A stretch of DNA of 64,000 nucleotides. Source: Carcharhinus amblyrhynchos (taxonomy: Eukaryota). The stretch covers positions 49,786,001 through 49,850,000 of the forward strand of contig OZ336879.1 of assembly GCA_965287045.1 (NCBI GenBank). Direction: 5' to 3'. The notes beneath the pieces were generated by a model, which did no database searches, was not told where the DNA came from, and saw only the letters and a list, made by a program, of their open reading frames with translations. Shown here one piece after another: positions 1-61,390 of this stretch. The position numbers and the translations under genes were made by a program. Within the stretch, counting starts at the first letter, position 1. Every line of letters starts with the position of its first letter.

Positions 1-51
1 ACCGCTTTTTTCCTGTACTTCCAGTTCTCGGGGCTTGTTAGAGTGTAGTTT

Positions 52-112
52 ACTTCCGTACCGGAAGTTAGGCCAGGGGATTGTCATTAAGGGGGAGCAG
101 GGGGTATAAAAA
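52..112 (+). promoter_or_regulatory. Candidate Pol II promoter: inverted pair of ETS sites plus TATA box
   Basis: ACTTCCG-TAC-CGGAAGT perfect inverted repeat at 52-68; TATAAAAA at 105-112. Confidence 0.5.
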
Positions 113-205
113 TAGGGGTAGCAGCATAGAGCGGGCAACGGAGTGAGTGGGAACAGAGTGAGGAGGGCTTTGGCTCGCTGGGCTTAGGAGAGAGCAGGCT
201 TAGAG

Positions 206-214
206 AAGGTGAGT
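206..214 (+). other. Consensus 5' splice donor upstream of ORF1
   Basis: AAG|GTGAGT with GT at 209-210. Confidence 0.5.
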
Positions 215-254
215 GACAGATTTCTACCTTTGGGAGCTTACAGGAGGTTGGGAC

Positions 255-1148
255 ATGGCAGGGAATATAGGGAGGAATGTAAGTTGTGTCAGGTGCCACA
301 TGTGGGAGTTCCTGGTGGTGTCACGTGTCCCCAAGGTACACATCTGCAGTAAATGTTTGGAACTGCAGCGCTTGAGGGCCCGGGTCAGGCAACTCGAGGG
401 CCGGCTAGAAGATGCATCTCTAGTCAGGGAGAATGAGGAGATAATGGCTGGGAACCATGAGAAGGAGGAGGTCTCGAGGGCTGAAGAGAAGGGAGGATGG
501 ACGACTGTGAGGAGGGGAAAGAGGACGAAGAAGAGCAGTCAGGGTCCCCCAGCCTCCCCAAAGGCCCCCCAAGGTTCGTTGACAGGGGCACAGAAAGATA
601 GGCAGGAGGGGGAGACTAACTTAGAGGGACAGAAGGGGGCCGGTAAGGTGATAGTGGTAGGGGACGGGAGGGTCCGAGGTATCGATAGGAGGTTCTGTGG
701 ACAGAGGCGTGACTCCAGGATGGTGGTCTGCCTCCCTGGAGCAGGGGTAAAGGACATAACGGACAGGGTAGAAGGAATTTTGAAAGGGGAGGGGGCACAG
801 GCTGAGGTCATAGTACATGTAGGGGAGGGGGACATAGGAAGGAGCAGTAGGGTAGAGGTACGTAGGCAATTTAGGGAGCTGGGGGCCAAACTAAAGAGTA
901 GGACCTCCAGGGTGGCACTCTCTGGGTTGCTGCCTGGTACAAGCAGGGCAAAGAATGAAGAGATCATGCAGCTGAATGCATGGTTGAGGGATTGGTGTAG
1001 GGTAGAGGGCTTTACTTTTGTGGATCACTGGGAGGTGTTTAGGAGAGAAGGGCAATTGTACAGGAAGGGTGGGGAGAATTTGAACGGGAGGGGAACTAAT
1101 GTCTTAGCGGGGAGGTTAGCTAGGGTGTTTACGAAGGGTTTAAACTAA
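255..1148 (+). CDS. CR1 ORF1 protein: N-terminal zinc finger and leucine zipper plus SGNH/GDSL esterase-like domain
   Basis: CxxC-x16-CxxC (CVRC...CSKC) then LQRLRARVRQLEGRL coiled coil, WTTVRR motif, and SGNH-like blocks VVGD, LPGA, VHVG. First ATG is at 255 (ACATGG); the ORF track start at 213 is a GTG. Confidence 0.92.
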   Translation: MAGNIGRNVSCVRCHMWEFLVVSRVPKVHICSKCLELQRLRARVRQLEGRLEDASLVRENEEIMAGNHEKEEVSRAEEKGGWTTVRRGKRTKKSSQGPPASPKAPQGSLTGAQKDRQEGETNLEGQKGAGKVIVVGDGRVRGIDRRFCGQRRDSRMVVCLPGAGVKDITDRVEGILKGEGAQAEVIVHVGEGDIGRSSRVEVRRQFRELGAKLKSRTSRVALSGLLPGTSRAKNEEIMQLNAWLRDWCRVEGFTFVDHWEVFRREGQLYRKGGENLNGRGTNVLAGRLARVFTKGLN

Positions 1149-1177
1149 TATGGAGGGGGGGTGGGGAGGTGGCTGGG
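1136..1177 (+). other. Candidate -1 ribosomal frameshift signal
   Basis: In-frame X_XXY_YYZ heptamers G_GGT_TTA (1136-1142) and T_TTA_AAC (1139-1145) just before the ORF1 stop. The -1 frame is the ORF2 frame. G-tracts at 1152-1177. Confidence 0.55.
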
Positions 1178-4027
1178 AGAGAGTCGGGTGAAAGGAAAAG
1201 TATCAGGGAGAAGGAGGTTCCGAGGGACACTTGTGGGTTGAACTGTGTCTGTTTCAATGCTAGGAGTGTGACAGGGAAAATGGATGAGCTTAGGGCCTTG
1301 ATGTGTGTGAGGCAGTTAGATGTGGTGGCTGTAACAGAGACATGGTTAAGGGAAGGGCAGGACTGGCAGCTGAATGTTCCTGGGTACAAGTGTTTTAGGT
1401 GTGACAGAAGAGGGTTGAAGAGAGGTGGAGGGGTGGCACTGTTGGTAAAGGAAAGCATCGCAGTAGTGCAGAGGGAGGACAATATGGAAGAGATAGGGAT
1501 TGAGTCGCTGTGGGTGGAGTTGAGGAATAAAAAGGGAGAGATTACATTGCTAGGGGTGTACTATAGGCCACCCAACAGCCCAAGGTCAGTGGAGGAAGGT
1601 ATTTGCAGGGGCATTTTGGATAGGTGCAGGAAGAATAGGGTGGTTGTAGTGGGTGACTTTAATCTTCCTGGAGTGAATTGGAGGGGGCCTAGAGCTGGGG
1701 GTATGGAGGGAGAGGAGTTTGTGAAATGTGTTTTGGAAGGGTCTCTAGAGCAGTATGTAACTAGTCCGACTAGGGGAGAGGCTATACTGGATTTAGTGTT
1801 GGGTAATGAGCCGGGGCAGGTGGGAGAGGTAGAGGTAGGTGAACATGTGGCTAATAGTGACCACAAGTCCGTCTACTTTAGGATAAAAATGGAAAGGGAC
1901 GAGTGCCAGCCGAACGGGAGTGTGCTGAACTGGGGAAAGGCGAGCTATAGCAGGATTAGGAGGGAGCTGCAGGACACTGATTGGGAGGGACTGTTAGCTG
2001 GCAAGTCCACGGTTGGCAAGTGGGAGGCTTTTAAAGGCAAAATGAAATGGTTGCAGGGGAGGTATGTTCCGGTTAAGAGGAAGGATGGGAAAGGTAGCAT
2101 TAGAGAGCCGTGGATTACAGGGGGTATCGAAGACTTGGTCAGGAAGAAGAGGGAGGCATATGTTAGGTCGAAACGACTGGGTACAGAGAGTGTGCTGGAG
2201 GAATATAGAGAGAGTAGGAGGGAGCTAAAAAGGGGAATTAGAAGGGAGGAGAGAGGGCATGAAATGGCTTTGGCTGGTAGGATTAAGGAGAATCCAAAGG
2301 CATTTTATTCCTATATTAGGAGCAAGAGAGTAGTTAGAGGGAAAATTGGTCCTCTTAGGGACAAAAGTGGGGAGTTATGTATTGAGTCGGAGGGAATGGG
2401 GGAGCTCCTGAATGAATACTTTGCGTCGGTATTCACAAAGGAGAGGGGTTCGGAATCGTGCGGTCTGTTAGAGGGAGCTGAGGATCAGCTGCAGGAGATA
2501 TCTATTACGAGGGAGGAAGTGCTAGGGCTTTTAGGTAGCGTAAGGACGGATAAAGCTCCGGGGCCTGATGGTATTTATCCCAGGCTGCTTAGGGAGGTGA
2601 AAGATGAAATTGCTGGGCCTCTGGCGCAAATCTTTGTCTCTTCTTTGGACACAGGTGAGGTCCCAGAAGACTGGAGGGTGGCAAATGTGGTACCGCTGTT
2701 CAAAAAAGGTAGTAGGGATAACCCTGGGAATTATAGGCCGGTGAGTTTGACATCGGTGGTAGGGAAATTAATGGAAAAAGTACTTAGGGGTAGGATGTAT
2801 GAGCATTTGGAGCGTTGCGGTCTGATTGGGGATACGCAACATGGCTTTGTTAGAGGGAGGTCTTGCCTTACGAATCTGGTGGAATTCTTTGAGGAGGTGA
2901 CAAAAACAGTTGACGATGGGCAAGCCGTTGATGTCATCTATATGGATTTCAGTAAGGCGTTTGACAAAGTCCCTCATGGTAGGCTGGTAGAAAAGGTTAA
3001 GGCGCATGGGATACGAGGCCAGGTAGCTAGGTGGATTGAGAACTGGCTGGGCAATAGGAGACAGAGGGTAGTTGTGGAGGGGACTTTGTCCAGCTGGAGG
3101 CCAGTGACCAGTGATGTGCCGCAGGGCTCGGTACTGGGACCTCTCCTCTTTGTAGTCTACATAAATGACTTGGAAGAGAGCGTAGGTGGTGTGATCAGCA
3201 AGTTTGCTGATGACACCAAGATGGCAGGGTTGGTGGGTACTGAAGTGGATTGTCAGGTGATACAACAGGATATAGATAGGTTGGTGCATTGGGCAGATAG
3301 GTGGCAGATGGCATTTAATCCTGACAAATGCGAGGTGATGCATTTTGGAAGGAATAATATAGAGAGGAGCTATGTGATTAAAGGTAGACAAATTAGAAGT
3401 ATAGAAACACAGAGGGACCTGGGAGTGCAGGTTCACAAATCCATAAAGGTTGTGACACAAGTGGAGAATGTTGTCAGGAAGGCTTATGGAATGCTAGCCT
3501 TTATAGGAAGAGGTATAGAGTTTAAAAGCTGCCGTCTAATGCTTCAGTTGTATAGAACGTTGGTTAGACCGCATTTGGAGTACTGCGTCCAGTTCTGGTC
3601 ACCTTACTACCGGAAGGACGTGGAGGCTCTGGAAAGGGTGCAGAGGAGGTTTACCAGGATGTTGCCTGGCATGGAGGGGTTGGGTTACGAGGAAAGGTTG
3701 GAGAAACTGGGACTGTTCTCTTTGGAAAGACGGAGATTGAGGGGTGACATGATAGAGGTATATAAGATACTGAAGGGAATAGACAGGGTCAATAGTGAGA
3801 GACTGCTCCCTAGATTGGTTACGAATACAAGAGGACATGATTTAAGGGTGAGGGGGGAGAGGTATAATTTGGATATGAGAGGAAGGTTCTTTACGCAGAG
3901 AGCTGTGGGGGTATGGAACACGCTACCAAGTGGGGTGGTGGAGGTGGGAACGTTGGACTCGTTTAAGGTTCAGTTAGATAGGCACATGAGTGAAACGAGG
4001 ATGGAGGGTTATGGTAGGGGTTATTGA
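1169..4027 (+). CDS. CR1 ORF2 protein: apurinic-like endonuclease plus reverse transcriptase
   Basis: Motifs FNARS, VTETW, GGGVA, GVYYRPP, GDFN, LDLV, SDH (EN); KAPGPDG, YRPVSLTS, DFSKAFD, PQGSVLGP, FADD at 3203-3214 (RT); C-terminal TRGH. The frame is open from 1124 and the start codon is uncertain. One suspicious substitution, SGVPQG to SDVPQG, at 3113-3115. Confidence 0.97.
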   Translation: MAGRESGERKSIREKEVPRDTCGLNCVCFNARSVTGKMDELRALMCVRQLDVVAVTETWLREGQDWQLNVPGYKCFRCDRRGLKRGGGVALLVKESIAVVQREDNMEEIGIESLWVELRNKKGEITLLGVYYRPPNSPRSVEEGICRGILDRCRKNRVVVVGDFNLPGVNWRGPRAGGMEGEEFVKCVLEGSLEQYVTSPTRGEAILDLVLGNEPGQVGEVEVGEHVANSDHKSVYFRIKMERDECQPNGSVLNWGKASYSRIRRELQDTDWEGLLAGKSTVGKWEAFKGKMKWLQGRYVPVKRKDGKGSIREPWITGGIEDLVRKKREAYVRSKRLGTESVLEEYRESRRELKRGIRREERGHEMALAGRIKENPKAFYSYIRSKRVVRGKIGPLRDKSGELCIESEGMGELLNEYFASVFTKERGSESCGLLEGAEDQLQEISITREEVLGLLGSVRTDKAPGPDGIYPRLLREVKDEIAGPLAQIFVSSLDTGEVPEDWRVANVVPLFKKGSRDNPGNYRPVSLTSVVGKLMEKVLRGRMYEHLERCGLIGDTQHGFVRGRSCLTNLVEFFEEVTKTVDDGQAVDVIYMDFSKAFDKVPHGRLVEKVKAHGIRGQVARWIENWLGNRRQRVVVEGTLSSWRPVTSDVPQGSVLGPLLFVVYINDLEESVGGVISKFADDTKMAGLVGTEVDCQVIQQDIDRLVHWADRWQMAFNPDKCEVMHFGRNNIERSYVIKGRQIRSIETQRDLGVQVHKSIKVVTQVENVVRKAYGMLAFIGRGIEFKSCRLMLQLYRTLVRPHLEYCVQFWSPYYRKDVEALERVQRRFTRMLPGMEGLGYEERLEKLGLFSLERRRLRGDMIEVYKILKGIDRVNSERLLPRLVTNTRGHDLRVRGERYNLDMRGRFFTQRAVGVWNTLPSGVVEVGTLDSFKVQLDRHMSETRMEGYGRGY

Positions 4028-4070
4028 ATAAGGGTTAGAACCTCGGGAGACACCGGAAAGGCAGGCTTGT

Positions 4071-4101
4071 GATTAACGTTTTTGTCTTTTCACTCCGCAG
4101 G
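4071..4101 (+). other. Consensus 3' splice acceptor downstream of ORF2
   Basis: Branch-like GATTAAC (A at 4076), pyrimidine tract TTTTTGTCTTTTCACTCC, CAG|G at 4098-4101. Confidence 0.55.
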
Positions 4102-4229
4102 TGGAGGTCCACCTCGTTGTCAAACGAGGGGCATGCACACGGTGGGTTGTGCGTGGGCTGCTCCTGGAGGTTCCGGGAGTGGCCTAGTACTTCGTGTCGG
4201 TGTGTGTGCTTGATCCTGGACTGGTAGAC

Positions 4230-4410
4230 GGGCGCCGCAACAGCTCGGTGACTAGCACTGCTGGCTGTGCAGATACATGGATTTGGGCCTGTGTCTGTGG
4301 GAGTTTGTGCATTCTCCCTGTGGTTGCGTGGGTTTCCTCCGGGCGCTCCAGTTTCCTCCCACACCCCAAAGATGTGCTCTTAGGCTGATTGGTTTTACCA
4401 AATTGACACT
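4230..4410 (+). mobile_element. V-SINE (HE1-like) degenerate tRNA head and V-domain embedded in the LINE 3' UTR
   Basis: GGGCGCCGC...GACTAGCACTGCTG head remnant, then GGAGTTTGTGCATTCTCCCTGTGGTTGCGTGGGTTTCCTCCGGGCGCTCCAGTTTCCTCCCACA, matching free SINE copies at 7851, 23741 and 62125. Confidence 0.85.
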
Positions 4411-4844
4411 ATTCTCCCCTGAATCTGGTTAAGTCAGGGGTTCTATTTGTAGATACGCAGGGTAGAATAGGTGTAGGGTGATGCGGCGGCGCGGGCTTGT
4501 TGGGCCGAAGGGCCTGTTTCCCGTGCTGGGTTGTTCTTTGTTCTTTGTACTAAGTAGTAAACTCAGAACAGAGATGAAAGTGAGGAGGAGAACAAGAAGC
4601 AGAAGTAGAAGACAATGAACAAAAACATTAGTGGAGTCAGAGATGGAGAAAAATGTAAAATAAGAACTGAATAAAACAAGAGTGAAAGAGAAAAGAGTTT
4701 GGGAAAGAGTTGTAAAGATGGAGGAGACAGGCTTTTACTTTTTCAGATGTACTAAAGGCCAGAGGAGTGAGAGACTGAGAAAAACTGGGGGAGTAAGTGG
4801 AATCAGGATATTGAATTTGATGATCAGCCATGATACCTTGTGGC

Positions 4845-13888: not shown

Positions 13889-14285
13889 GATGTGGAGATG
13901 CCAGTATTGGACTGGGGTAGGCATAGTAAGAAGTCTCACAACCCAGGTTAAAGCCAACAGATTTATTTGGCAGCACAACCTTTTGGAGTCTCACTCCTTC
14001 ATCAGGTGAGTGAGGACTTGTATTCACAAACAGGACATATACAGACACCAACTCAATTTACAAGATAATGGTTGGAATGAATCTTTACAGTAATCTAGCC
14101 TTAAAGGTACAGACAATATGTATGGAGAGAGGGTTATGCACAGGTTAAAGAGAAGTGTATTTCTCCAACAAAGACAGTTAGTGAGATTTTGCAAGCCCAG
14201 GCAAGTCATGGGGTTACAGATAGTGTGACATGAACCCAAGATCTTAGTTGAGGCTGTCCTCATGTGTGCAGAACTTAGCTATCAG

Positions 14286-15280
14286 CCATTTATATAGATG
14301 ATCTGGAGGAGGGAACCGAGTGCATGGTGTCGAAATTTGCTGATGACATCAAGATTGGTGGAACAGCAAATTGCGCGGAGGGTGTGGAGAGTCTGCAGAA
14401 GGATCTAGATAGGCTGGGCGAATGGGCCAGGAACTGGCAAATGGAATTTAATGTTGGCAAATGTGAAGTTGTCCACTTTGGTAGGAATAATGGTAGGAAG
14501 GACTACTACTTACATGGTGAAAAACTGCAGCATGCTACGATGCAGAGGGACCTCGGGGTCCTTGTACATGAGTCGCAAAAACCCAGCCTGCAGGTGCAGC
14601 AGGTGGTCAGGAAGGCAAATAGGATGCTGGCCTTCATAGCGAGGGGGATTGAATATAAAAGTAGGGAGGTCTTGCTGCGGCTGTATAGGGCACTGGTGAG
14701 GCCGCAGCTGGAGTACTGTGTGCAGTTTTGGGCGTCGCACTTATGCAAGGATGTTTTGGCCTTGGAGGGAGTGCAGAGGAGGTTCACTAGGCTGATACCG
14801 GAGTTGAGGGGGTTGAGCTATGAGGAGAGGCTGAATAAACTAGGCTGTACACGTTAGAGTTTAGAAGAATGAGGGGAGATCTCATTGAGATGTATAAGAT
14901 GATGAATGGGATGGATAGGATAGAGGTGGAGAGGCTCTTCCCGCTCAGAAAGGACAGTAGGACTCGAGGGCACAGCCTCAAGATAAAGGGGGGGCGGTTT
15001 AGAACGGAGTTGAGGAGGAACTTCTTCACTCAAAGGGTGGTGAATCTCTGGAATTCTCTGCCCGTTGAAGTGGTGGAGGCTGCCTCACTAAATATATTTA
15101 AGATGCGGGTAGATAGGTTTTTGATAGGCAAGGGGATTAAGGGTTATGGGGAGAGGGCAGGAAAGTGGAACTGAGCCACGACAGATCAGCCATGATCTTA
15201 TTGAATGGCGGGGCAGGCTCGAAGGGCTAGATGGCCTATTCCTGCTCCTATTTCTTATGTTCTTATGTTCTTATGTTCTT
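14286..15280 (+). mobile_element. 5'-truncated young CR1 inserted in the Penelope element
   Basis: SKFADD..LEYCVQFW..TRGH ORF pieces at 14324-15174 with one frameshift; (TTCTTATG)n tail; TSD TATCAG at 14280-14285 and 15281-15286. Confidence 0.93.
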
Positions 15281-23740: not shown

Positions 23741-24040
23741 TGGGTGGCACAGTGGTTAGCACTGCTTCCTCACAGTGCCAGGGACCCGGGTTCTATTCCT
23801 GGCTTCGGCCACTGTGTGTGGAGTTTGCACATTCACCCTGTGTCTGCGTGGGTTTCCTTTGGATGCTGCGATTTCCTCCCACAGTACAAAGATGTGCAGA
23901 TTAGGTGGATTAGCCATGCTAAATTGCCCCTTAATGTCAGGGAGACTAGCTAGGGTAAATGCATGGGGCTCTGGGGTTGGGCCTGGGTAGGATTATGGTT
24001 GTGCAGGTTCAATGGGAACCAACGATGCTATGATTCTATG
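23741..24040 (+). mobile_element. V-SINE (HE1-like)
   Basis: tRNA head with A/B boxes, V core, ATTCTATG tail. Confidence 0.9.
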
Positions 24041-33499: not shown

Positions 33500-35850
33500 T
33501 TTCCATTTTCACCTTCCTGACCACTCCAGGGACCATTGTTGGCATGGCTTTAGAGAGAGCCACCACTACAGCATGAGAGAGATGTCAATGGTGGCTGTGG
33601 CAGTGGGCAAGCATGGGTCTGGAGCCAGGGTGAGGAGCAGAGGCCTCAGCTGACATTGCAGGGACTCAACCAGAATCCGATATTGCTATGCATTGCTTGC
33701 TGATAGCTCAGCTATCTGGTTCAGATTGGTGCCCCTGCAGCCACCAACCAGCCTGGGGCCCCTCTATTGATGGGGCCTTATGCCTAGCCACCATGTGTTT
33801 CATTGTAAGTCCACCTCTGCATTGTAGCATGGCTGTGGAGCCTGATGGTAGACTATCATGGTTTTCCATAGTGTAAACAAGAATAGGTTCTCTGTTTTTG
33901 TTGGCCTTTTATCCTTTGGTGCCTGTATTCTAAACTGCTCAAAGGATATGTTACAACTTGAGAGAAATCCTCATGTAGTTTTCTTGTGTGTTTTTCTCCC
34001 AGTTTATGGTGGATGTTACAGTTCCTGAAGTTTCCTTTCAAGAGTGCTTGAACTTTAATCTCAGCCCACCTTGCGAGTGCTATCCGGGCTTAAGTTGTGT
34101 GAACATTACCATCTTGGAGGTTTTACCTTCTTACATGCCCACTCCATCTGAGTTGGGCTTAGTTGTGAAAGTATATTAGTTAATTTGTTAAGATAACATG
34201 TTGTATAAAACAAGTACAATCATTTAAATGGGTGCCCATGTGAGAAATTATGTCATCAGAGGATCTGAAAGTGACAACGCAGGTGAATAAGGTAGTCAAG
34301 AAGGCATACAACATACTTGCCTTCATCGGAGGGGCCATTGAGTATAAAAACTGGCAGGTCATGTTGCAGCTGTACAAAACCTTAGTTAGGCCTTGTTTGG
34401 AATATTGTGTTCAATTTTGGTCACCACACTACCGGAAGGAGGTGAATGTTTTGGAGAGGTTCACCAGGATGTTGCTTCATCTGGAATGTATTAGCTAGAG
34501 AGATTGGATAAAACCGGTTTGTTCTCACTGGAACAATAGAGGCAGAGGAGTGACCTGATAGAGGTTCACAAGATTATGAATGGCACGGACAGAGTGGATA
34601 GACAGATGATCTTTCCTGGGGTAGGAAAATCAAGTACTAGGGGACATAGCTTTAAGGTGTGTGGGGAAAAGTTTAGAGGAAATGTGCAGGACAAGTTTTT
34701 TACACAGACTGGAATGCCCAGGGAGGTGGTGGGAGCAGATACGAAAGGGGCATTTAAGGGGCATCTAGACAAATACATGAATAGGATGGGTATGGAAGGA
34801 TATGAACTCCGTGAGTTCATATGGTTTTAGTAAGGAGGAGAAATACCAACCATGCGCTGGAAGGCTGGCAGAGCAAATGAAGCATGCAAGGGCAGCAGGG
34901 GAGGCCCTCATCACCAGGTGGTTCACTCACTAGGGTTTGTGTCTGTGGGTTCCACCCCTGCACCCCCCACCTCCCCCTGAAGATCCTTCTATCTCCTGTA
35001 ACATTGTTACACCAGAGTGGTGGGCCTGGGTAATCTGTGTCAATAGTTTTTTGGCAGGCAGGAGGATGATGATGACTCGCTAAGCACCATTATGATGATG
35101 TCCTGGTGCAAACAAGTCTGACTCCTACCTGGGATCCACATGCACGCTGGCACCTGGGTCCACATCTGTGCAGTGGGCAAGTGATCTGAAACCCCCATAT
35201 AGAGCCCTGGGCTGGGTGGGTGGGGGACAAGAGGGATTGCTCAGGGGGTCTGCGGAACCAATAGCTTCCTTTTCTCAGTGACACAACATTGAGGGGCCTC
35301 CCCAACTGACATCAATATGAAGCATCCTTCTGGCAATCATCAATGGAAGAGAATTCCTATCTGAGCCAAATCTGAGACAAATTAGTCACAGATGGGTGGT
35401 GAAAAACAATCTATTTGCAATAAAGGTACTAAAAATTTGATGTTCTAACATAAAAACTTGTGAACAGAAAACATTAAGGTGCTTAAATATCTTTCTAACT
35501 AGCATAGCTGTAAAGATGCCCCTTAACGGTCATTATGAAATCTGCATCTGCGAACTCCCCGGGCAGCGAGTTCCAGGCACCCACTACCCTCTCAAGGGAG
35601 GGGGAGACATGGGCTGTCAGTGACACGATGGTTGGGCTGTCATCAAGACATGAGCACCTGTCATTCCTCCACTCACTTTGAGGCAACTTTTCACAGGCAC
35701 ATGATTCAGGTGTGAATTTAAAGGAGATATACAAGGCCAGCTGAGTCCTCATCTCCGGCAGACCCCCGCATGCCAGGACGTTCCCTCCTCACTCTGATGT
35801 ACATTATCAGATGTGTCGTGCTCACCACAGAATGACCTGGCAGAGAGTTA
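33500..35850. mobile_element. Scrambled Harbinger transposase relics with a CR1 insertion
   Basis: KHARAAGEALITRWF at 34880-34930 matches the C-terminus of the 27307 ORF; minus-strand CRR..RLS N-terminal motif near 35750. Confidence 0.55.
34200..34830 (+). mobile_element. CR1 3' fragment
   Basis: KKAYNILAFI..IEYK..LQLYKTLVRP.LEYCVQFWSP, TRGH. Confidence 0.9.
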
Positions 35851-36049: not shown

Positions 36050-37490
36050 ATTTGTTTTGATTTGATTTGATTTATTATTGTCACATGGATTAATATACAG
36101 AGAAGTTTTGTTTTTTGCGTGCTAGACAGACAAAACATACCATTCATAGAGAAGGAAAGGAGAGAGTGCAGAATATAGTTTTACAGTCATAGCTAGGTTG
36201 TGGAAAAAGATCAATTTATTTCAAGGTATGACCATTCAAAATTTGACAACAGCAGGGAAGAAGCTGTTCTTGAATTGGTTTGTATGTGACCTCAGAATTT
36301 TGTCTCTTTTTCCCAAAGAAAGGAGGTGGAAGAGAGAATGTCTGAGCTGCGTGGGGTTGTTATTTATGCTGGCTACTTTGCTGAGGCAGTGGGAAGTGTA
36401 GGCAGAATAAATAGATGGGAGGCTGGACTGCATGATGGACTGGGCTATATTTTTTAGTCATTCGTGGGACATGGGCGTCACTGGCTGGCAGCATTTATTG
36501 CCTATCCCTAAGAAGGTGGTGGTGAGCTGCCTTCTTCACCGCAGTCCATGTTCTATGGGTTGACTTACAATGCCTTTAGGGAGGGAATTCCAGGATTTTG
36601 ACCCAATGTATGCCTCCTAGTTCTAATTCCGTCCACGAATGGAAACAACATCCTGCTTCTATCTTTTCTATTCCCTTCATAATTTGATATGTTTCTATAA
36701 GATCCCCTGTCCTCCAGTCTTCTAAATTCTAATGAGTATATCCCCGGTGTACTCAATCTCTTCTTATAAGCCAACCCTCTCAACTCTAGTGAATCTCCTC
36801 AGCACCCGCTCTGGAGCCAGTATATTCTTTCTCAAGTAAGGAGAACGAAACTGTACATAATACTCCAGTGAATTTCCAAGTCAGGATGGTGGATATCTTG
36901 GAGGGGAGCTTGCAGGTGATGGTGTTCCCATTTATCTGCTGCCCTTGTCCCTCTAGGTGGTAGTGGTCGTGGATTTGGAAGATTCTGTCAAAGGATCTTT
37001 GATGAATTGCTGCAGTCCATCTTGTAAATAGGGTATGCACTGCTACTACTGAGTGTCGGTAGTGGAGGGATTGAATGTTTGTAGATGTGGTGCCAATCAA
37101 GCAGACTGCTTTGTCTTTGATGGTGTCAAGCTTGTTGAATGTTGTTGGAGCTGCATCCATCCAGGCAGGTGGGGAGTATTCCATCACACTCCTGACTTGT
37201 GCCTCGTAGATGGTGGATAGGCTCTGGTGAGTCAGGAGATGAGTTACTCGCTGCAGTTTTCATGATCCTTTGTAGTTTCTTACAATCTTGGGCAGAGTAG
37301 GAGCCATACTAAGCTGTAATACAACCAGAAAGAATGCTTTCTATGGTGCATCTGCAAAAGTTGGTGAGAGTTGTAGCTCATATGCCAAATTTTCCCAGTC
37401 TCCTAAGAAAGTAGAGACATTGGGGGGGCTTTCATAACTATGGTGTTGGCATGGGGGACCAGGACAGGTTGTTAGTGATCTGGACACGTA
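36050..37490 (-). mobile_element. Rex1/Babar fragment split by a second LINE (36450-37257), which itself carries an antisense CR1 piece (36610-36870)
   Basis: Rex1 sequence homologous to 5030-5630 on both sides; MEYSP.AWM.AAPTT..KLDTI.DKA motif in the middle. Confidence 0.8.
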
Positions 37491-37499
37491 AAATGGTTA

Positions 37500-38362
37500 A
37501 CATCTAAGATAGGTTAAATGGATGGGCAAGGGTCTGACAAATGGAGTACAATGCTGGTAAATGTGAGGTCATCCATTTTGGTAGGAATAACAGCAAAATG
37601 GACTAACATTTAAATTGTAAAGAATTGCAGCATACTGTTGCGCAGAGGGACCTGGGTATCCTTGTACATAAATTGCAAAAATTTGCAGGTACACCAGGTA
37701 ATTAAGAAGGGAAATGGGATTTTGTACATCATTGCTAGAGGGATGGAGATAAAAAACAATGAGGTTATGTTGCAGCTGTATAAGATGCTCATGAGGTCAT
37801 ACCTGGAGTAATGTGTACAGTTTTGTTCTTACTTGAGAAAGGATATACTGGCTCTGGATGGGGTGCTGAGGAGATTCACTAGGTTGATTCTAGAGTTGAG
37901 AGGGTTGGCTTGTAAGAAGAGACTGAGTAGACTGGGGCTATACTCATTAGAATTTAGAAGATTGGAAGAGGGGGGATCTTATAGAAACATATCAAATTAT
38001 GAAGGGAATAGATAAGCTGGAAGCGAGGAGGTTGTTTCCATTCGTGGGTGGAACTAGAACTAGGAGGCATAGCCTCAAAGTAGGGGGGAGCAGATTTAGG
38101 ACTGAGTTGAGGAGGAACTTCTTCGCCCAAAGGGTTGTGAATCTGTGGAGTTCCCTGTCCAGTGAAGCAGTTGAGGCTACCTCATTGATTGGTTTTACGG
38201 CAAAGATAGATTTTTGAACAGTAAAGCAATTCAGGATTATGGTGAGTGAGCGGGAAAGTGAAGCTAAGTCTGCTGAAAGATCAGCCATGGTCTTACTGAA
38301 TGGGGGAGTAGGCACGAGGTACCAGATGACCTACACCTCTTAGTTCGTATGTTCTTACGTTC
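37500..38362 (+). mobile_element. CR1 3' fragment
   Basis: RRFTRLI.EL, RTELRRNFF.QRVVNLW, decayed TTCTTATG tail. Confidence 0.9.
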
Positions 38363-40225: not shown

Positions 40226-40546
40226 AACATAAGAACATAAGAACATAAGAAATAGGAGCAGGAGTAGGCCAACTAGCCCTTCGAGCCTGCCCCGCCATTC
40301 AATAAGATCATGGCTGATCTGTCGTGGCTCAGTTCCACATTCCCGCCCTCTCCCCATAACCCTTAATCCCCTCTCTCATCAAAAACCCATCAACCCGCGT
40401 CTTAAAAATATTTAGCGAGGCAGCCTCCACCACTTCAACGGGCAGAGAATTCCAGAGATTCACCACCCTTTGAGTGAAGAAGTTCCTCCTCAACTCCGTT
40501 CTAAACCGCCCCCCCTTTATCTTGAGGCTATGCCCCCTAGTCCTAC
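40226..40546 (-). mobile_element. Young CR1 3' end, same subfamily as 14286-15280
   Basis: (CATAAGAA)n tail; near-identical to 14960-15280. Confidence 0.92.
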
Positions 40547-42816
40547 TAAAGTGAATCTTCTGGAGAAGTTTTACTTCAAAACAGGGAAAAGGGCAGGTGT
40601 CCAATTTCTGTTCTGCCAAACATGTTACATAACTAACAATGGAAACAAATCTGTATGTTTATGAGATGCACAGCAGAAAAGTTGCTGAAGTATAGCTTTG
40701 TGCGCTTGCTCATAAGCTAATCAGGCTATCTACATTCCTCTACCATTGTAGACATTGAATGATGTTAGCAGTAAAATTACTGTTGACAAATTTTCTTACG
40801 TTAATAGCCAATGCAAACTTTTTTCCTGTAATCCCTTCCAGTTGAAAACAATAATCAAGAATAGTTATCTTGAATAAATTATGACAAAGAGACCCAAGAA
40901 ACAAACATTTTTAAGCCCTGATGTAACTCGGTGTTCTAACCCATATGTAGTTGGACTACTTGATGGTGTGTTTTGTTTTATCAGCAACTTGTATTTCTAT
41001 ATATAATATTGTCATAGACAGGATGGAGGAGTTAATTAAAATAACATTAATTTCTCCTCTCATTAATCGTCTGTACAGAAAAGTGTTTTGATTTTTTCCT
41101 CTTTATAAACAGTGGTGCATTTCCTCAACTTCTTTGTTTTTGTATGTTCCAATTATATATAAATAACCCCACAGCAAACTCCAGAGAGGATGAATTCAAA
41201 GAGTTAGTTAGTTTATCTGCATACATTCAAAACACAGGAGGAAGGATTGCAGCATTGCCCTCACATCAGACAATAGAGAGAGACAGAGAAAGAAAAGGAT
41301 TTACAGTACAGAGACATTAATATTGGCTTATGTGGGTACCGGAGTTCAGATCAAAGTCCAATGAGTTATTCTTATATGGGGGCCAATGGGCTGAAAATCG
41401 ATGCTGTAGAATTAAATTTTCTGGTGGTGTTGATTTAACAAACTGAGATAGGCATACAGAGTTGAATCAGTCTTGTAGGCACTGGTACAGAATTTCTAGG
41501 ATAAGTAGTTTTATTTGAATTATTATTGTCACGTGTATTGGTGTACAGTGAAAAATATTGTTTCTTATCTGCTATATAGACAAAGCATACCATTCAAGCA
41601 ATGTAGATGAGGCCAAATGTTTTACCTGGGCAGAGCTCTTTGTCTGTGAGGCTGTTAGTCTGATGATAAAGACAAGACTGAGAAATTCAACTCACGATGT
41701 CACATGAACTTCACCTCTCCACCCAGTCTCCCACAATGGATATGTGTCCATTGTCTGAAATCCTGCTGAATTTTGAAGATTGGTAAACGTTTCAGTCATT
41801 AAGAATTGAAAGGAAGTTTGCTGGGCCTTTTGTCATGACAGATCATCAATAAGAAAGCAACAAAACTACTGAATTAAATTATAGAAACCTTTAACTCTTC
41901 CAATACCATAGAGATTTTTTCAGTTTGCAATTCGGCATTTAAGCCACTTACATAAAAATATTTATAGTATTAATGAACAGTACTTTAGTACTGAGTATTG
42001 TCCTGTAAATTAAAATCATACTGTAGAAAATATTCTGGCCATGATTCACTGGGACCACGAGCCACAAGCAGGGATTCTGATGGCCCTATTGAATCAGCTG
42101 TCGGGCCTAAACTGGGGATTCCCAGCGGATGGCAAACCCGTCGCAATACTCCCAACCCATCTTACCACCCTGATTAGATTCCCACCCACTTTGGATGAAT
42201 ATTCATCTGTGAGAAGCCCACTGGCCGGGCTTTGGTCCAGGCCCTGTCGAAGATGGACCTGGCACCTTGTACTCTGAGGAGATAGAGACGTAAGTGCTAT
42301 GCTCCTCTGTCACTACTAGGCTGCTAAGTGAGCGTTCTCCAAGGGACCTAGGGATTGGGTGGGCTTGGGCTGGGGGGAAGGGGTTGATCTCAGGACTCTG
42401 CCCTGTGATGGTGGTCTAATGGCTACACTTGCCCTTGTTGCCTTGGGGAAGGCAGTGATCACTTTTAGGATGGCGATTTCAGACATCATTCTGGGGTAAG
42501 GTTTTCATTATTGTCCCTGTCCTTTAAAACATTGAAATGTGGTAATTCCTTTGATATCCATGCCTCACGGCCACTTGGAGCTCTTCAAAATCACTGCAGC
42601 ACTGCATTCAACATTAGGGATTGGTCTGGGTGTTAAAAGAATTATTTAAAGTGATATTTTGGAAATGACCTATGCTGGAGATCCCCTTGCTTTCTCTCAT
42701 AACCCACAGCTGCTCTAAAACCCATTTGAAATGCTTTGCTGGTCACTTTCACTGGGGAATTACCTCTGAACGTTGAGAGGTATCTGAATACTTTAAGGTG
42801 GTTTGATTGACAGGCA

Positions 42817-45104: not shown

Positions 45105-45710
45105 GACCATATCCCTCTATTCCCATCCTATTCATGTATTTGTCAAGATGCCCCTTAAAAGTCGCTATCATATCTACTTCCACTACCTCCCCCAGCAACA
45201 TGTTCCAGGCACCCACCACCCTCTGTGTAAAAAATCTGCCTCATACATCTCCTTTAAACCTTGCCCCTCGCAACTTAAACCTGTGCCCCCAGTAATTGAG
45301 TCTTTTAAGTATCCACTCTGTCCATGCCTCTCATAATCTTGTAGGCTTCTATCAGGTCTCCCCTCAACCTCCGTCATTCCAGTGAGAACAAACCAAGTTT
45401 CTCTAACTTCCCCTCATAACTGATGCCCTCCATACCAGGCAACATCCTGGTTAATCTTTTCTTGACCCTCTCCAAATCCTTTAAATCCTTCTGGTAGTGT
45501 GGCAGCCAGAATTGAACACTGTATTCCAAGTGCTGTTCTAAAAGCTGCAATGTGACTTACCAATTTTTAAACTCAATGCCCCAGCCAATGATGACAAGCA
45601 TGCCAAATGCCTTCTTGATTACCTTCTCCACCTACATTACCACTTTCAGTGACCTGTGTACCTGTACACCAAGGTCTTTTTGCCTATCAATACTCTTAAG
45701 CGTTCTGCCA
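45105..45710 (-). mobile_element. CR1 3' fragment
   Basis: Reverse complement of the 34200-34830 type. Confidence 0.85.
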
Positions 45711-57454: not shown

Positions 57455-58565
57455 GGGGGCGATTCTCCCAAAAGTGCAGAATTGGTGGGAAAACTATTCT
57501 AACTCCTGACTGTTCTGACAGTTCAGCTTCTCACCTGAATCTCCACACTTTATGCATTGCAGAGGTCCCAGTCGTGATTATCATTAAAAACCCAGGGGGC
57601 GGAGCCTATTCACACGAGAGTCTGACGGTTCTGGAACTCTGCGCATGTGCAGTGGCCCCAAACTGTCAAACTCCCATTTGCTGGCCAGATCAATCCCTGG
57701 CCAGCCTGGGAGCCCTGCAGTGCTGCCTCTCCAACACCCCCCCCCCCCCCCCCACAGCCTGATCACAGCCCCCACAGCAATTCCTGGGCCAGCACTGCCT
57801 CCCACCACCATCCTGGTGTGCCTCAATGCCCAGACCCCAACCCCCAGCAGTTCAAGTGTGGCAATCTCCCACACCCTTCACCCTGGCAGACCCTCCACCT
57901 CACTGACCTCCGCCCCCCGCCAGGTCAGATGCAGGCCCTTCCCCCAGCTGACCACGACCACCACCCCCCACAGCCCACCCCAATCATTGCCCTCCTTCCA
58001 TCACAGACCCATCCCAGTGCAAGTGGCTGTGGGGCCCCCACCCCCACCGATTGCCCCGCGGCCTGCCCACAGTAGACCCTGCCCCCTTGGCAGTGCCCGA
58101 TGCCTACTGGGCAGTGCCAAGATGCCCTCTGGGCATGGACACTTTGCCCCTTTAGCAGTGCCAGGGACACATGCTAGCATTGCCAGGGTTCCCATGCCCA
58201 ATGGGCACCACCCCTGCTGTCTGGCCCCTGGGGAGTCCTAATTGACCCACCATCCATTCCGATGGGTCTCCCGCTAGTTCCTCAGACGTGGGGAGCTAGT
58301 CTGAACCCCACCACAATGAAATACTCCCGGTGGTATAGGAGATTCAATTGGGATCTGAACGGTCCCAATAATGAACACAGGTACATATTCTAAATACAGG
58401 CGGGAAAGATTGAAATTACTCCGGTTTCCAGTGACTGCTCGCCAGCTCTGGGAGATGTGCATGCATTCCCAGCACATGCGCAAATCCCCATTCAAAGCTG
58501 CGGACGCGCGTGTCCCGCCACGTCCCACTAGTAAAGTTGTGGGTCACAGTGGGAGAATCGCGGCC
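57455..58565. mobile_element. Harbinger-type non-autonomous element
   Basis: GGGGGCGATTCTCCC / GGGAGAATCGCGGCC TIRs; related to 11044-12074. Confidence 0.8.
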
Positions 58566-59419
58566 AACCTCTCAATGTCTAGCCTGTAAGGACTTTTCAG
58601 AATCTTGTATGTTTCCATAAGATTGCCTTGCGTTATTCTAACTCCCAGAGAATATTGGCCCAATTTACTCAACCTCTCATCATTAGCTAATCCTCTTGTC
58701 CCAAGGGTGGATTTCATGGACCTTCCCTATGCTGCCTCAATGCAATCATATCCTTTCTTACATATGGAGACGAAAGTTTCACACTGTACTTCAATAGTGG
58801 TCTCAGCAAAGCCCTGCCCAATTGCAGCAAGACTTCTTTATTCATGTACTTAATCCCCTTGTAATAAAGGCCAACATGCCAATTGCCTTCTTAATTGCCA
58901 CTAAACCTACCTGCTAACTTTGTAGGGTCCTTGTGTGTATGGTACACCAAAATCTCTCTGAACGTCAACATTAAAAGCTTCAGGCCTTTAAAAACATCTG
59001 TTTGTCTATTCTTATGAGCAAAGTGAATAACTTCCCATTTCCAATATTGTATTACTTCTTCCCCCTTATTTTCTAATTGTTTAACCTGTCTATATCTCTT
59101 CACACTTCTCTGTATCCTCCTCACAACTTACATATCCACCTTGCTGATTTGTCAGCAAACTCAGATACAATACTTTCTCTTCATTTGAGTCATTTGTGTA
59201 GATTGTAACTAGATAGACTGTTAACATGAAAGGAGCTGGTGATGCAAAATTGATAACTGTGGATATCTTGTCTGCCTCTGGCAGTTCTATCCCTGTAGGA
59301 GATTTTGAAAACAGGATTCCTTGAAACAGAAGGAACATCTCTGAGACTGCATGTCTCACCTACAGAAGCAGATCTTCATCATCATTGGCAAGCAACTGTG
59401 GGTGAGTCCATAGGTAAAA

Positions 59420-61390
59420 TTGGCAGCATATTGATGTTGCAAGTACTGAAGACTTGTGCTCCAGAACTAGCCACACATCTAGCCAAATTGTTCAAGTGTA
59501 ACTACAACACTGGCATCCATTTGGTAATGTAGAAAATTGCCCAGGCATGTACTGTCATCAAATCCAACCAAGCCAATTATCACTCTATTTGCCTATTCTC
59601 AATCACCAGCAAAGCGATGGAAGGTGTTGTCGACAGTGGGACTTACACAGCAAAACTGATCAGTTCTAGTTTCCCCTCTGTGCTCCATTGATAACCCTGA
59701 GTTGATATCCTAATATTTTCTATCAGGGCCACTCGAATCCCATTACAATGTTTGTCCAAACATGGACAAAAGACCTAAACTCAAAGTGAGATGCGAGTGA
59801 CTATCCTTGACATTAGGGCCATGTTTGACCAAGCATGGCATCAAGGAATCCTAGCAAATCTGGACTTAATGGGAATCAGGAGAAAAACCCTCAACTTCTT
59901 GGAGTGATATCTGGCACAAAGGAAGATATTTGTAGTTGTAACAGGAAATTACTGCAGGAGTTCCTCAGGCTAATGCCCAACTATCTTCAGCATTTTTATC
60001 AATGGTCTTCCTTCCATTATAAGGTCAGAAGTGGGATGTTCTCTGATGATTGCATGGTGTTCAGTACCATTCATGACTTCTCAGACACTGAAGCAATCTG
60101 TGTCCATATGCAGCAAGACCTGGACATTAACCGAGCTTGAGTTGATAACTGGCAAGTAATATTCATGCCAAACAAGTGCCTGCAGTGACCATCTCCAACA
60201 AGTGAAAAATAACAATCTGCCCTTGAAATTCAATGGCAGTACTGTCACTGAGACCTTCACCATCAACATCCTGGGGCTTACTTTCAACGGGAAATTGAAC
60301 TGGACCAACCATATAAGTTCTGTGGCTCCAAGAGCAGGTTAGAGGCTGGGAATCTTGAAGAGATTCCCCAAAGTCTGTCCACCATCGACAAGGTACAAAG
60401 TAAGGAATCTGATGAAATACTTGCTGGAATGAATTCAGCTCCAACAACTTTCTAGAAGCTGGACACCATCCAGGACAAAGCAGCCCACTTGATTGGCATC
60501 CCATCTACATTGCTTCAAATTCACTCCATCCATCACTGACACACAGGGCCTATTTCACAATTTTGATTCTAATTGCTAGGTGGACTTGAAACTGGGAGTG
60601 TTTCAGACCTGACTTTTAGATCTGTTCTGAGGCACCTCTACATGCATCCTGGGCCCTATATTACCACTGTTATGCAAAGGTTTGGTAAAGTTGGGCATGA
60701 GGCGAGTAGCGCAATCTGTGCCTGCCTCCGTACCAGTTCCCCCTTTACCAAGGCCCGAAAATGGCTGCAATTGGGACCGCACCTGAAATGGGCATGACAG
60801 CTATTTAAATGCATTTGACTGCATTTAAATCGATTTAATGGGCTGCACGCTCAACTTTACCGGCACTCCCCCTTTTCGCCCATCCAGAATCAATGTGAAA
60901 CAGATGTGCTCCAATTCGGGCATGTCAGTTAGCGAGGAGGAAAGTGCCCAGTGTCTGACAGCTCTCTGCTTGATGTCGGTTGGGTTGCACAATGTGATGG
61001 TAAAATTTGGCCCACAATCGTAGCAGTAAGAGCCATTTACCAGATGCACTGGAGGAAGTCACCAAGGCTCCTTTGACAACAGCTTCCAAACCTGTAATAT
61101 CTACCACCTAAAAGGGCAAAAGCGACAGATTCATAGGATCACCACCACCTTCAAGTTCTCCCCCAAGTCGCACAGCATCCTGACTTGGAACTTCATCACC
61201 ATTCTCTCACTGTCACTGAGTGAATTTCATGGAACTCCCTTCCTAACTGCACTGCGGGCCTAAAATACATAGTCTGCAGCAATTCAAGAATGCAGATCAC
61301 CATCACCTTCTCACAGCCTTTTAGGGATGGACAATAAATGCTGGCATAGCCAGAAATGCTCACATGCTATGAATAAATCAAAAAAAAAAG
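59420..61390 (+). mobile_element. Degraded CR1/L2-group LINE (second family), interrupted by a MITE
   Basis: LKTCAPELA..LAKLF, FD..WHQG, FSDDC, KLDTIQDKA; tail GGACAATAAATGCTGGC...ATGAAT plus poly-A. Confidence 0.8.
60546..61013. mobile_element. Harbinger-type MITE related to the termini of 24373-28402
   Basis: GGGCCTATTTCACAATTTTGATTCTAA / TGGTAAAATTTGGCCC, TSD ACA. Confidence 0.72.

Follow-up and report, generated by a model that had tools for sequence, protein, structure and literature searches.

How the second open reading frame (ORF2) of a long interspersed nuclear element (LINE) comes to be translated is settled for few elements only, and there by reinitiation. The question is raised by a 64,000-nucleotide (nt) stretch of the Carcharhinus amblyrhynchos genome (GenBank assembly GCA_965287045.1, contig OZ336879.1, positions 49,786,001 to 49,850,000, forward strand; hereafter, the window). 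The window begins with an intact CR1 LINE on the plus strand (positions 1-4549) whose ORF2 lies in the -1 frame relative to ORF1 and encodes its first endonuclease motif ahead of any in-frame AUG. An initial annotation, made from the sequence of the window alone, proposed that this ORF2 is produced as an ORF1-ORF2 fusion by -1 programmed ribosomal frameshifting. Every sequence test that we ran supports this proposal, and we infer that ORF2 is probably translated by -1 frameshifting at the heptamer U_UUA_AAC, which would yield an ORF1p-ORF2p fusion.

The ORF1-ORF2 junction of the window copy

All coordinates of the initial annotation are confirmed. ORF1 ends in the codons ACG AAG GGT TTA AAC TAA (1131-1148), and within this end lie, exactly where the initial annotation had placed them, two overlapping heptamers in ORF1 phase, G_GGU_UUA and U_UUA_AAC (Table 1). 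The latter is the coronavirus slippery site. As had also been described, the ORF2 frame is exactly -1: it is closed upstream by a TAG at 1121 and then open from 1124 to 4027, passing through the heptamer, and the ATG at 1150 is out of this frame and terminates after 13 codons. The in-frame ATGs of ORF2 are found at 1280 and 1301. The claim that none precedes 1280 is correct for the window copy but does not describe its family, because in the 28 copies that could be typed, out of 30 loci, this codon reads ACG in 24, ATG in three (the window included) and ACA in one. The usual first in-frame AUG of the family is therefore that at 1301, further inside the endonuclease. A GUG at 1169 is in frame with ORF2 and has no counterpart in the linkers of other families. 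The arrangement exceeds chance: a scan of 1258 codon positions of both ORFs, up to a point just short of U_UUA_AAC, picked up a single canonical in-phase heptamer, G_GGU_UUA, and this one sits at the junction. Contigs of four sequencing runs also cover the junction, and of the 151 differences in them the 40 best supported all lie outside 1136-1148; the joints are few and of low depth, and we do not use this observation as evidence.

Conservation of the heptamer across families

Junction DNA and ORF1 proteins from various families served as queries for collecting loci, and the ORF1 ends were placed by a hidden Markov model that left out the last five ORF1 residues. Of 197 distinct copies, which represent ten families, 167 carry TTTAAAC exactly in phase where ORF1 ends. 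Another 12 copies carry TTTAAAC offset by an indel, and the other 18 comprise 16 one-base variants, one copy with two changes and one in which the site is out of view. A stop codon adjoins the exact heptamer in 163 of the 167 copies. All ten multi-copy families, which share at most 78% identity with one another as measured with BLAST, end in NNT-TTA-AAC-stop, while the residue before the terminal Leu varies by family (G, A, T, S or R; codons GGU, GCU, ACU, AGU or CGU/UGU/CAU), as does the stop codon (TAA, TAG or TGA). Of the two heptamers originally put forward, U_UUA_AAC is thus upheld, whereas G_GGU_UUA is family-specific and, not being conserved between families, is ruled out as the main shift site.

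Codon usage, the key test here, separates this conservation from that of the protein. Among 44 columns conserved at the amino acid level within the last 150 codons of ORF1, only three, namely one Asp, the terminal Leu and the terminal Asn, are spelled with one and the same codon throughout the ten families. Three to five codons occur in each of the ten other conserved Leu columns, and the background in these elements is 12% TTA among Leu codons, 30% AAC among Asn codons and 27% T in third positions. This codon control used positions snapped to a loose motif, whereas the count of 167 of 197 was made unsnapped. Because UUA and AAC are fixed while the other conserved Leu columns vary in codon, the constraint, as read from these alignments, acts on nucleotides, and it covers exactly the seven letters required for tandem slippage.

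Phase and start codons of ORF2

The first endonuclease motif is in the -1 frame in 127 of 179 copies, 119 of which are open from the heptamer onward. Copies with the motif in another frame concentrate in old families; when 44 of them were compared with an in-phase relative, the indel fell in the first 30 nt after the stop in 23, elsewhere in 12 and in both places in nine. Four family-10 copies each have a private indel of their own, and most family-1 copies share one common deletion and one contig. This contig, C46 (4 Mb), carries many family-1 copies (L031-L035, L037, L039, L044, L161 and L162), and the same one-base linker deletion occurs in eight aligned copies of the family, which suggests local duplication of one dead copy.

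All 11 fetched copies with a frame of at least 700 codons beginning at the junction begin it in -1. The linker between shift site and endonuclease measures 37, 41, 45, 46, 52, 62 or 120 codons depending on the family, with the -1 phase kept, so that several length changes have all preserved this phase. In all 14 family-1 copies and in 15 of the 33 family-2 copies listed, the -1 frame is closed one codon before the heptamer, which pins entry into ORF2 to the heptamer site. No in-frame AUG precedes the motif in any of 29 copies of the window's family (family 3) or in 11 of 23 open family-7 copies, and in one copy, L201, the first in-frame Met of ORF2 is at codon 173. The motif segment is under purifying selection in the -1 frame (ratio of nonsynonymous to synonymous polymorphism, pN/pS, 0.20-0.50, uncorrected). 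A conserved AUG overlapping the ORF1 stop was not found: the overlapping codon is ATA, ATT, GAA, GAT, AAT or GTT according to family; ATG occurs in one of 34 family-2 copies and elsewhere does not rank with the commonest codons. Four single copies (P0017, P0052, P0073 and L067) have ORF1 and ORF2 joined in one frame by an indel, and no family with a fixed single-frame fusion was seen among those sampled.

Relatives beyond this genome

The named homologues closest to the window's ORF1 come from sharks and rays, and an X-L-N ending is seen in homologues from sharks, rays, coelacanth, Xenopus, turtle, lizard and bird. In 102 of 103 such proteins an amino acid with an NNU codon precedes LN, although about 20% would be expected to lack one. 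Among 150 representatives of ORF1 clusters, 92 have an intact-looking esterase end, and 59 of these 92 close with a slip-compatible dipeptide (48 LN, 9 GN and 2 KN) against a background of 4.9%. Gln always precedes the GN ending. In a quick version of the ORF1 tree, one clade of 21 rows (Shimodaira-Hasegawa-like approximate likelihood ratio test, SH-aLRT, 95) mixes QGN, SKN, EN, LN and FF+1 endings, which would correspond to the heptamers G_GGA_AAC, A_AAA_AAC, G_GAA_AAC, U_UUA_AAC and U_UUU_UUY. The only GN-type DNA that we obtained (L122, from a metagenome scan) reads CAG GGA AAC TAC TAG; its G_GGA_AAC reading had been predicted before the DNA was seen. In three database proteins the sequence across the site is ...FKL..., which is the -1 frame.

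The heptamer motif also stands at the ORF1 end of published CR1 consensus sequences, whose hosts, to go by the row codes, are presumably sharks, rays, chimaera, coelacanth, bowfin, frog and crocodilians. In the rows examined of the supplement to PMC13343379, 16 of 23 TTTAAACTA matches lie at CR1 ORF1 ends, one lies at an apparent Crack ORF1 end and six lie elsewhere; most of the 16 CR1 matches then run into a G-tract. Further searches for the GN and KN types gave little. The GN family was not found in the C. amblyrhynchos genome with P0152 (best matches of 36-40% identity), and searches of the same genome with P0064 and P0034 gave no match at strict cut-offs. Scans for GN/KN-type DNA yielded one unrelated locus and three blanks among viral sequences and two blanks among prokaryote genomes, and a search for long fused GN-type proteins returned one unrelated bacterial protein only. 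One shark-type CR1 ORF1 (P0029) carries the label Pseudomonas aeruginosa in NCBI; it sits on a 4-kb contig and is likely a contamination.

The G-rich element downstream of the heptamer

A G-rich element begins 6 nt after the heptamer, as initially described. In all ten families the most frequent letters are GGGG at +11 to +14 (1156-1159) and G at +19 (1164), and the fixed Gs include third positions of a codon whose amino acid varies; the element is real and its position is fixed across families. The suggestion that it forms a quadruplex holds in part, for about half of the families. The tract is the top G4Hunter peak of 3800 nt scanned (2.48, the next scoring 1.80), and in each of the 14 copies scored it exceeds the 94th percentile. 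Every copy of families 3, 9, 2 and 10 shows a two-tier pattern; overall, the quadruplex pattern is seen in the window's family and four others and is weak or absent in five. The element gave no Rfam match at E<=1.

The flank is G-rich and C-poor and offers no local partner strand (pseudoknots were weighed from composition). Strong single duplexes are predicted over long range between the G-rich element and C-rich stretches (-29 to -36 kcal/mol versus shuffled means of -22 to -25), in the window copy with a stretch in ORF1 (Table 1) and a second one at ~4341-4380. The partners fall in the 5' untranslated region (UTR) in families 7 and 9 and elsewhere in others, with no one homologous place. The cognate partner ranked first in two of ten families (mean residual -1.25 kcal/mol, permutation p 0.03, kinship uncorrected), and what looks like a compensatory change in family 7 goes back to a single event in one subfamily, to which there are about six exceptions. 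Since the partner sites are non-homologous and the cross-family test is weak, we rejected long-range pairing as a general stimulator and keep it as a weak lead. Families 7 and 9 (L150, L201) share a C-rich motif in the 5' UTR, ~1020-1120 nt before the ORF1 stop, that is complementary to the G-rich element over 10-13 nt; it could equally be a promoter factor site.

As to what would stimulate the shift, a two-tier or intermolecular G-quadruplex is our tentative first candidate, a protein bound to the G-rich element is conceivable but rather unlikely, and long-range pairing is distinctly unlikely, as is stimulation by the stop codon or sequence context alone. The element would act through its G content at fixed positions, not through a local Watson-Crick hairpin.

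Proposed frameshifting and its alternatives

The observations that carry the proposed frameshift are the fixation of synonymous sites, the -1 phase kept over varied linkers, the families lacking an AUG and a second heptamer type in a distant relative. In the proposed mechanism, ribosomes would read ORF1 until UUA occupies the P site and AAC the A site. The majority would go on to the stop codon and release the 297-amino acid (aa) ORF1p, whereas a minority would slip back by one base, both tRNAs re-pairing on UUU AAA, and continue with CUA into the linker, the endonuclease and the reverse transcriptase (RT). The predicted fusion measures 1257 aa, with the junction ...TKGLN/LIWRGGG.... The pause would likely come from the G-rich element, perhaps with help from the stop codon next to the heptamer. 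That the 5' U is fixed speaks for tandem slippage over a sole P-site slip at the stop, although the predicted peptide would be the same either way. As the element has no recognisable protease and the linker, inspected by eye, no 2A motif, the fusion would stay intact and might anchor the RT to assemblies of ORF1p at a ratio that is fixed and low. Heptamer form and spacing agree with the sequence definition of a -1 site given in PMC3542737, except for the local stem-loop or pseudoknot.

Several observations weigh against this interpretation. The ten families share descent and hence are not ten independent trials. The endonuclease motif is in frame 0 in 31 of the 179 copies and in +1 in 21 (52 together), and in family 2 frame 0 (13 copies) slightly outnumbers -1 (12), the -1 length being the modal one there (11 of 35 copies, other lengths at most four copies each). 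A conserved upstream AUG, which the initial annotation had named as contrary evidence, is approached in the youngest family-9 subfamily, where an in-frame AUG lies 5 nt after the stop in 39 of 43 open copies; yet it is not conserved, being replaced by TTG in the intact sister L158 and by AGG, CAG or GGG elsewhere. Among the 92 ORF1 representatives, which include several near-identical sequences and two mis-hits, 27 end in incompatible residues, two small clades included. The heptamer swap is seen in a single DNA (L122), with a chance match probability of perhaps one in five and a contig that ends before ORF2. The search of the PMC13343379 supplement was motif-led and covered the first 400 nt of each row, so it speaks of presence, not of frequency. 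No stable local fold was found, and a local stem-loop or, judged from composition, pseudoknot stimulator is accordingly rejected: the folding z-score is +0.35 over 90 nt of the window and +1.88 over 1100-1300, and ranges from -1.5 to +2.0 in 13 other copies. Finally, the two-tier G-tract pattern is found in only 5 of 34 copies of family 7, 2 of 7 of family 12, 0 of 5 of family 4, 0 of 5 of family 6 and 1 of 3 of family 11, and it turns up at 8.5% of ORF2 positions taken at random.

Chief among the rival explanations is AUG-independent reinitiation, in which ribosomes terminate and then restart at a codon other than AUG that overlaps the ORF1 stop or comes after it, so that ORF2p is made as a free protein and the heptamer and G-tract serve to hold the ribosome. 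Precedents exist in the UAAUG of SART1, which likewise puts ORF2 in -1 (PMC3708506), and in the ORF2 start of L1, which tolerates other sense codons (PMC1965478). Five of the ten CR1 families have AUA or AUU as the codon that overlaps the stop, but the other five have GAA, GAU, AAU or GUU there; the family-9 AUG five nt after the stop would also suit a restart. UGGGA, the calicivirus reinitiation motif, fits the commonest letters at +17 to +21 in about seven of ten families, but here it is downstream of the stop, whereas the viral motif is upstream. Reinitiation predicts neither an X_XXY_YYZ heptamer in ORF1 phase, nor a fixed U in a varying codon, nor a swap to G_GGA_AAC, and with the codon-level pattern and the swap left unexplained we consider it improbable.

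Even less probable, in our view, is that the terminal Leu-Asn reflects protein constraint or simple inheritance and that translation of ORF2 begins further downstream, at an AUG or at a near-cognate codon (GUG 1169, for instance). The terminal residues do close the last esterase helix, the families do share ancestry, and in-frame linker AUGs occur in families 2 and 9 and in the older family 7. A constraint on the protein, however, cannot fix UUA and AAC while ten other Leu columns vary, and relatives end in GN, KN or FF+1 instead; the linker AUGs, for their part, differ in position between families and are missing from family 3, and purifying selection acts on endonuclease motifs that lie before the first AUG. 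Similarly remote is a role of the motif in DNA or RNA processing, as a TATA-like internal promoter or a splice signal giving a separate ORF2 message. TTTAAA resembles a TATA box and CTAAT a branch point, in their consensus forms, but neither signal needs to be phase-locked to ORF1 codons. Moreover, the branch-point form is missing from the TAG families, and no pyrimidine tract comes after the motif; G_GGA_AAC is not TATA-like; and a shorter family-3 message would still have no AUG before the endonuclease motif.

We thus retain -1 frameshifting as the best explanation of the junction. A wider version of it, in which CR1 elements across jawed vertebrates and esterase-ORF1 LINEs more broadly make an unprocessed Gag-Pol-like fusion, switch between heptamers (U_UUA_AAC, G_GGA_AAC, A_AAA_AAC) and use a G-rich stimulator that is not of the Watson-Crick type, be it a natural G-quadruplex or another, is put forward tentatively, as a possibility that we would not bet on as a whole. 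Stimulators of this kind are not known from natural sites in the pertinent parts of PMC3919603 and PMC5009743.

The element and its surroundings

The coordinates of the element and of its junction are collected in Table 1.

Table 1. Features of the CR1 element at the start of the window
Feature	Positions	Strand	Remarks
5' UTR of CR1 element	1..254	+	sister copies L143, L144, L146, L148, L149 align at 97-98% from window base 1 to ~4550
ORF1, 297 aa, ending ...KGLN-stop	255..1148	+	Cys-rich N-terminus, likely coiled coil, SGNH/GDSL esterase
C-rich tract within ORF1, complementary to the G-rich element	548..571	+	weak lead
ORF2 frame, 967 codons, -1 relative to ORF1	1124..4027	+	apurinic/apyrimidinic endonuclease (APE), then RT
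Overlapping heptamer G_GGU_UUA, canonical form	1136..1142	+	ORF1 phase; family-specific, not conserved
Slippery heptamer U_UUA_AAC, conserved candidate shift site	1139..1145	+	ORF1 phase
ORF1 stop directly after the heptamer	1146..1148	+	TAA here; TAA, TAG or TGA by family
Low-conservation linker in ORF2 frame, shift site to first endonuclease motif	1148..1252	+	motif at codon 37
G-rich element, candidate stimulator	1152..1177	+	begins 6 nt after the heptamer
First endonuclease motif, FNARS	1253..1267	+	upstream of every in-frame AUG in the window's family
In-frame ATG of the window copy	1280..1282	+	ACG in most sister copies
3' UTR, ~520 nt	4028..4549	+	common to full-length copies of the window's family

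The assignment to CR1, as opposed to L2 or Crack, is made from the likeness of junction and ORF1 to rows labelled LINE/CR1 in the supplement of PMC13343379. The true 5' end lies some tens of nt before the start of the window. The ORF1 esterase is recognised by OSK above the Pfam cut-off and by Lipase_GDSL_2 below it (E 5.5e-06), and the ORF1 profile matches the 'ORF1-encoded protein' of PDB 4C1B with E 1.8e-33; in ORF2, Exo_endo_phos and RVT_1 both exceed their curated cut-offs. With its SGNH esterase in ORF1, APE and RT in ORF2 and short tandem repeats at the 3' end, the element resembles the vertebrate esterase-type CR1 LINEs (PMC13343379; PDB 4C1B), from which the family differs in its unusually long 3' UTR (~520 nt in five full-length sister copies versus ~100 nt in three other families of this genome). 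The sister copies are dispersed, share a 3' end in (TTCTTTG)n-type repeats, have unique flanks and lack long terminal repeats (LTRs). The family is young, as all 40 scored copies are 98-100% identical over the junction (3114 candidates in the genome).

In the esterase of this family, DGR, GEGD and KGGEN (~660-670 and ~825-835) stand where relatives have DS(I/M)VR, GTND and DGLH, so that by sequence the catalytic residues look lost while the reading frame is intact. A segment of the 3' UTR (~4283-4400) recurs five times in the window at 70-80% identity (at 23804, 62222, 32127, 7914 and 53456); it has no Rfam match and looks like a captured V-SINE central domain. The last 65 nt of the element recur once, at 20934-20870. 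Decayed and truncated LINE ORF2 fragments lie at 14279-15150, 34265-34803, 36654-36868, 37508-38211, 40353-40547, 45106-45709 and 58565-60179.

Comparison with known systems and implications

The arrangement at the CR1 junction is like that of retroviral Gag-Pol and of coronavirus and arterivirus ORF1a-1b, with an X_XXY_YYZ heptamer in the upstream phase and the polymerase ORF in -1 (PMC3542737). As in viral -1 signals, a conserved element follows at 5-9 nt, and an excess of structural protein over fusion is predicted for CR1. Unlike these signals, the CR1 heptamer resides in a non-LTR retrotransposon, is followed directly by a stop and has no local stem-loop or pseudoknot that we could find; and unlike viral Gag-Pol, the fusion would not be processed. 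UUUAAAC is called an efficient slippery sequence in PMC3919603, where a quadruplex placed 6-8 nt after it gave ~7% frameshifting in vitro. Those quadruplexes were engineered and three-tier, whereas the CR1 tract is at best two-tier or long-looped, and this in some families only. Frameshifting stimulated by a natural quadruplex is stated as not known there and in a 2016 review (PMC5009743, in the part consulted).

Among LINEs, the bicistronic RNA and low-level ORF2 of CR1 are shared with L1 and SART1, and the ORF2 of SART1 is also in -1. The ORF2s of L1 and SART1 have an AUG and give a free protein (PMC3708506, PMC1965478), in contrast to several CR1 families, which have no AUG before essential motifs and a fixed slippery heptamer. 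Dictyostelium TRE elements belong to a LINE clade other than that of CR1, but are likewise APE-type non-LTR elements, in a host of a different kingdom. For two of them, TRE5-A and TRE3-A, a figure legend in PMC5911963 says that -1 frameshifting is required for ORF2, citing two papers of 1992 and 1998 that are, to judge by their titles, descriptions of the elements. The idea of -1 frameshifting is, by that legend, not new for LINEs.

For CR1 itself we found no report of frameshifting in the literature; the key CR1 papers of the 1990s were outside the scope of this survey, so an earlier mention is possible. A turtle CR1 description of 1997, for instance, reportedly may discuss the ORF overlap. 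The words frameshift, overlap, slippery, start codon and translation do not occur in the main text of PMC13343379, and term look-ups in PMC4120745, bioRxiv 788562, PMC4255032 and PMC5135761 returned no CR1 frameshifting. The first 300,000 of the 449,034 characters of the review PMC5009743 do not mention CR1; the non-LTR elements named there include HeT-A and TART.

According to PMC13343379, CR1 dominates among the retrotransposon groups of most vertebrates, and as far as sequences can tell, its ORF1-ORF2 junction carries a real and strongly conserved signal of the recoding type. The signal is a candidate for a natural frameshift site that works without hairpin or pseudoknot, and it forms a short, exact and testable cassette, of which many near-intact young copies exist. 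If CR1 does frameshift, the annotated start of ORF2 would change in every CR1 consensus, and the RT would be born fused to the ORF1 esterase, which would directly explain cis-preference and stoichiometry.

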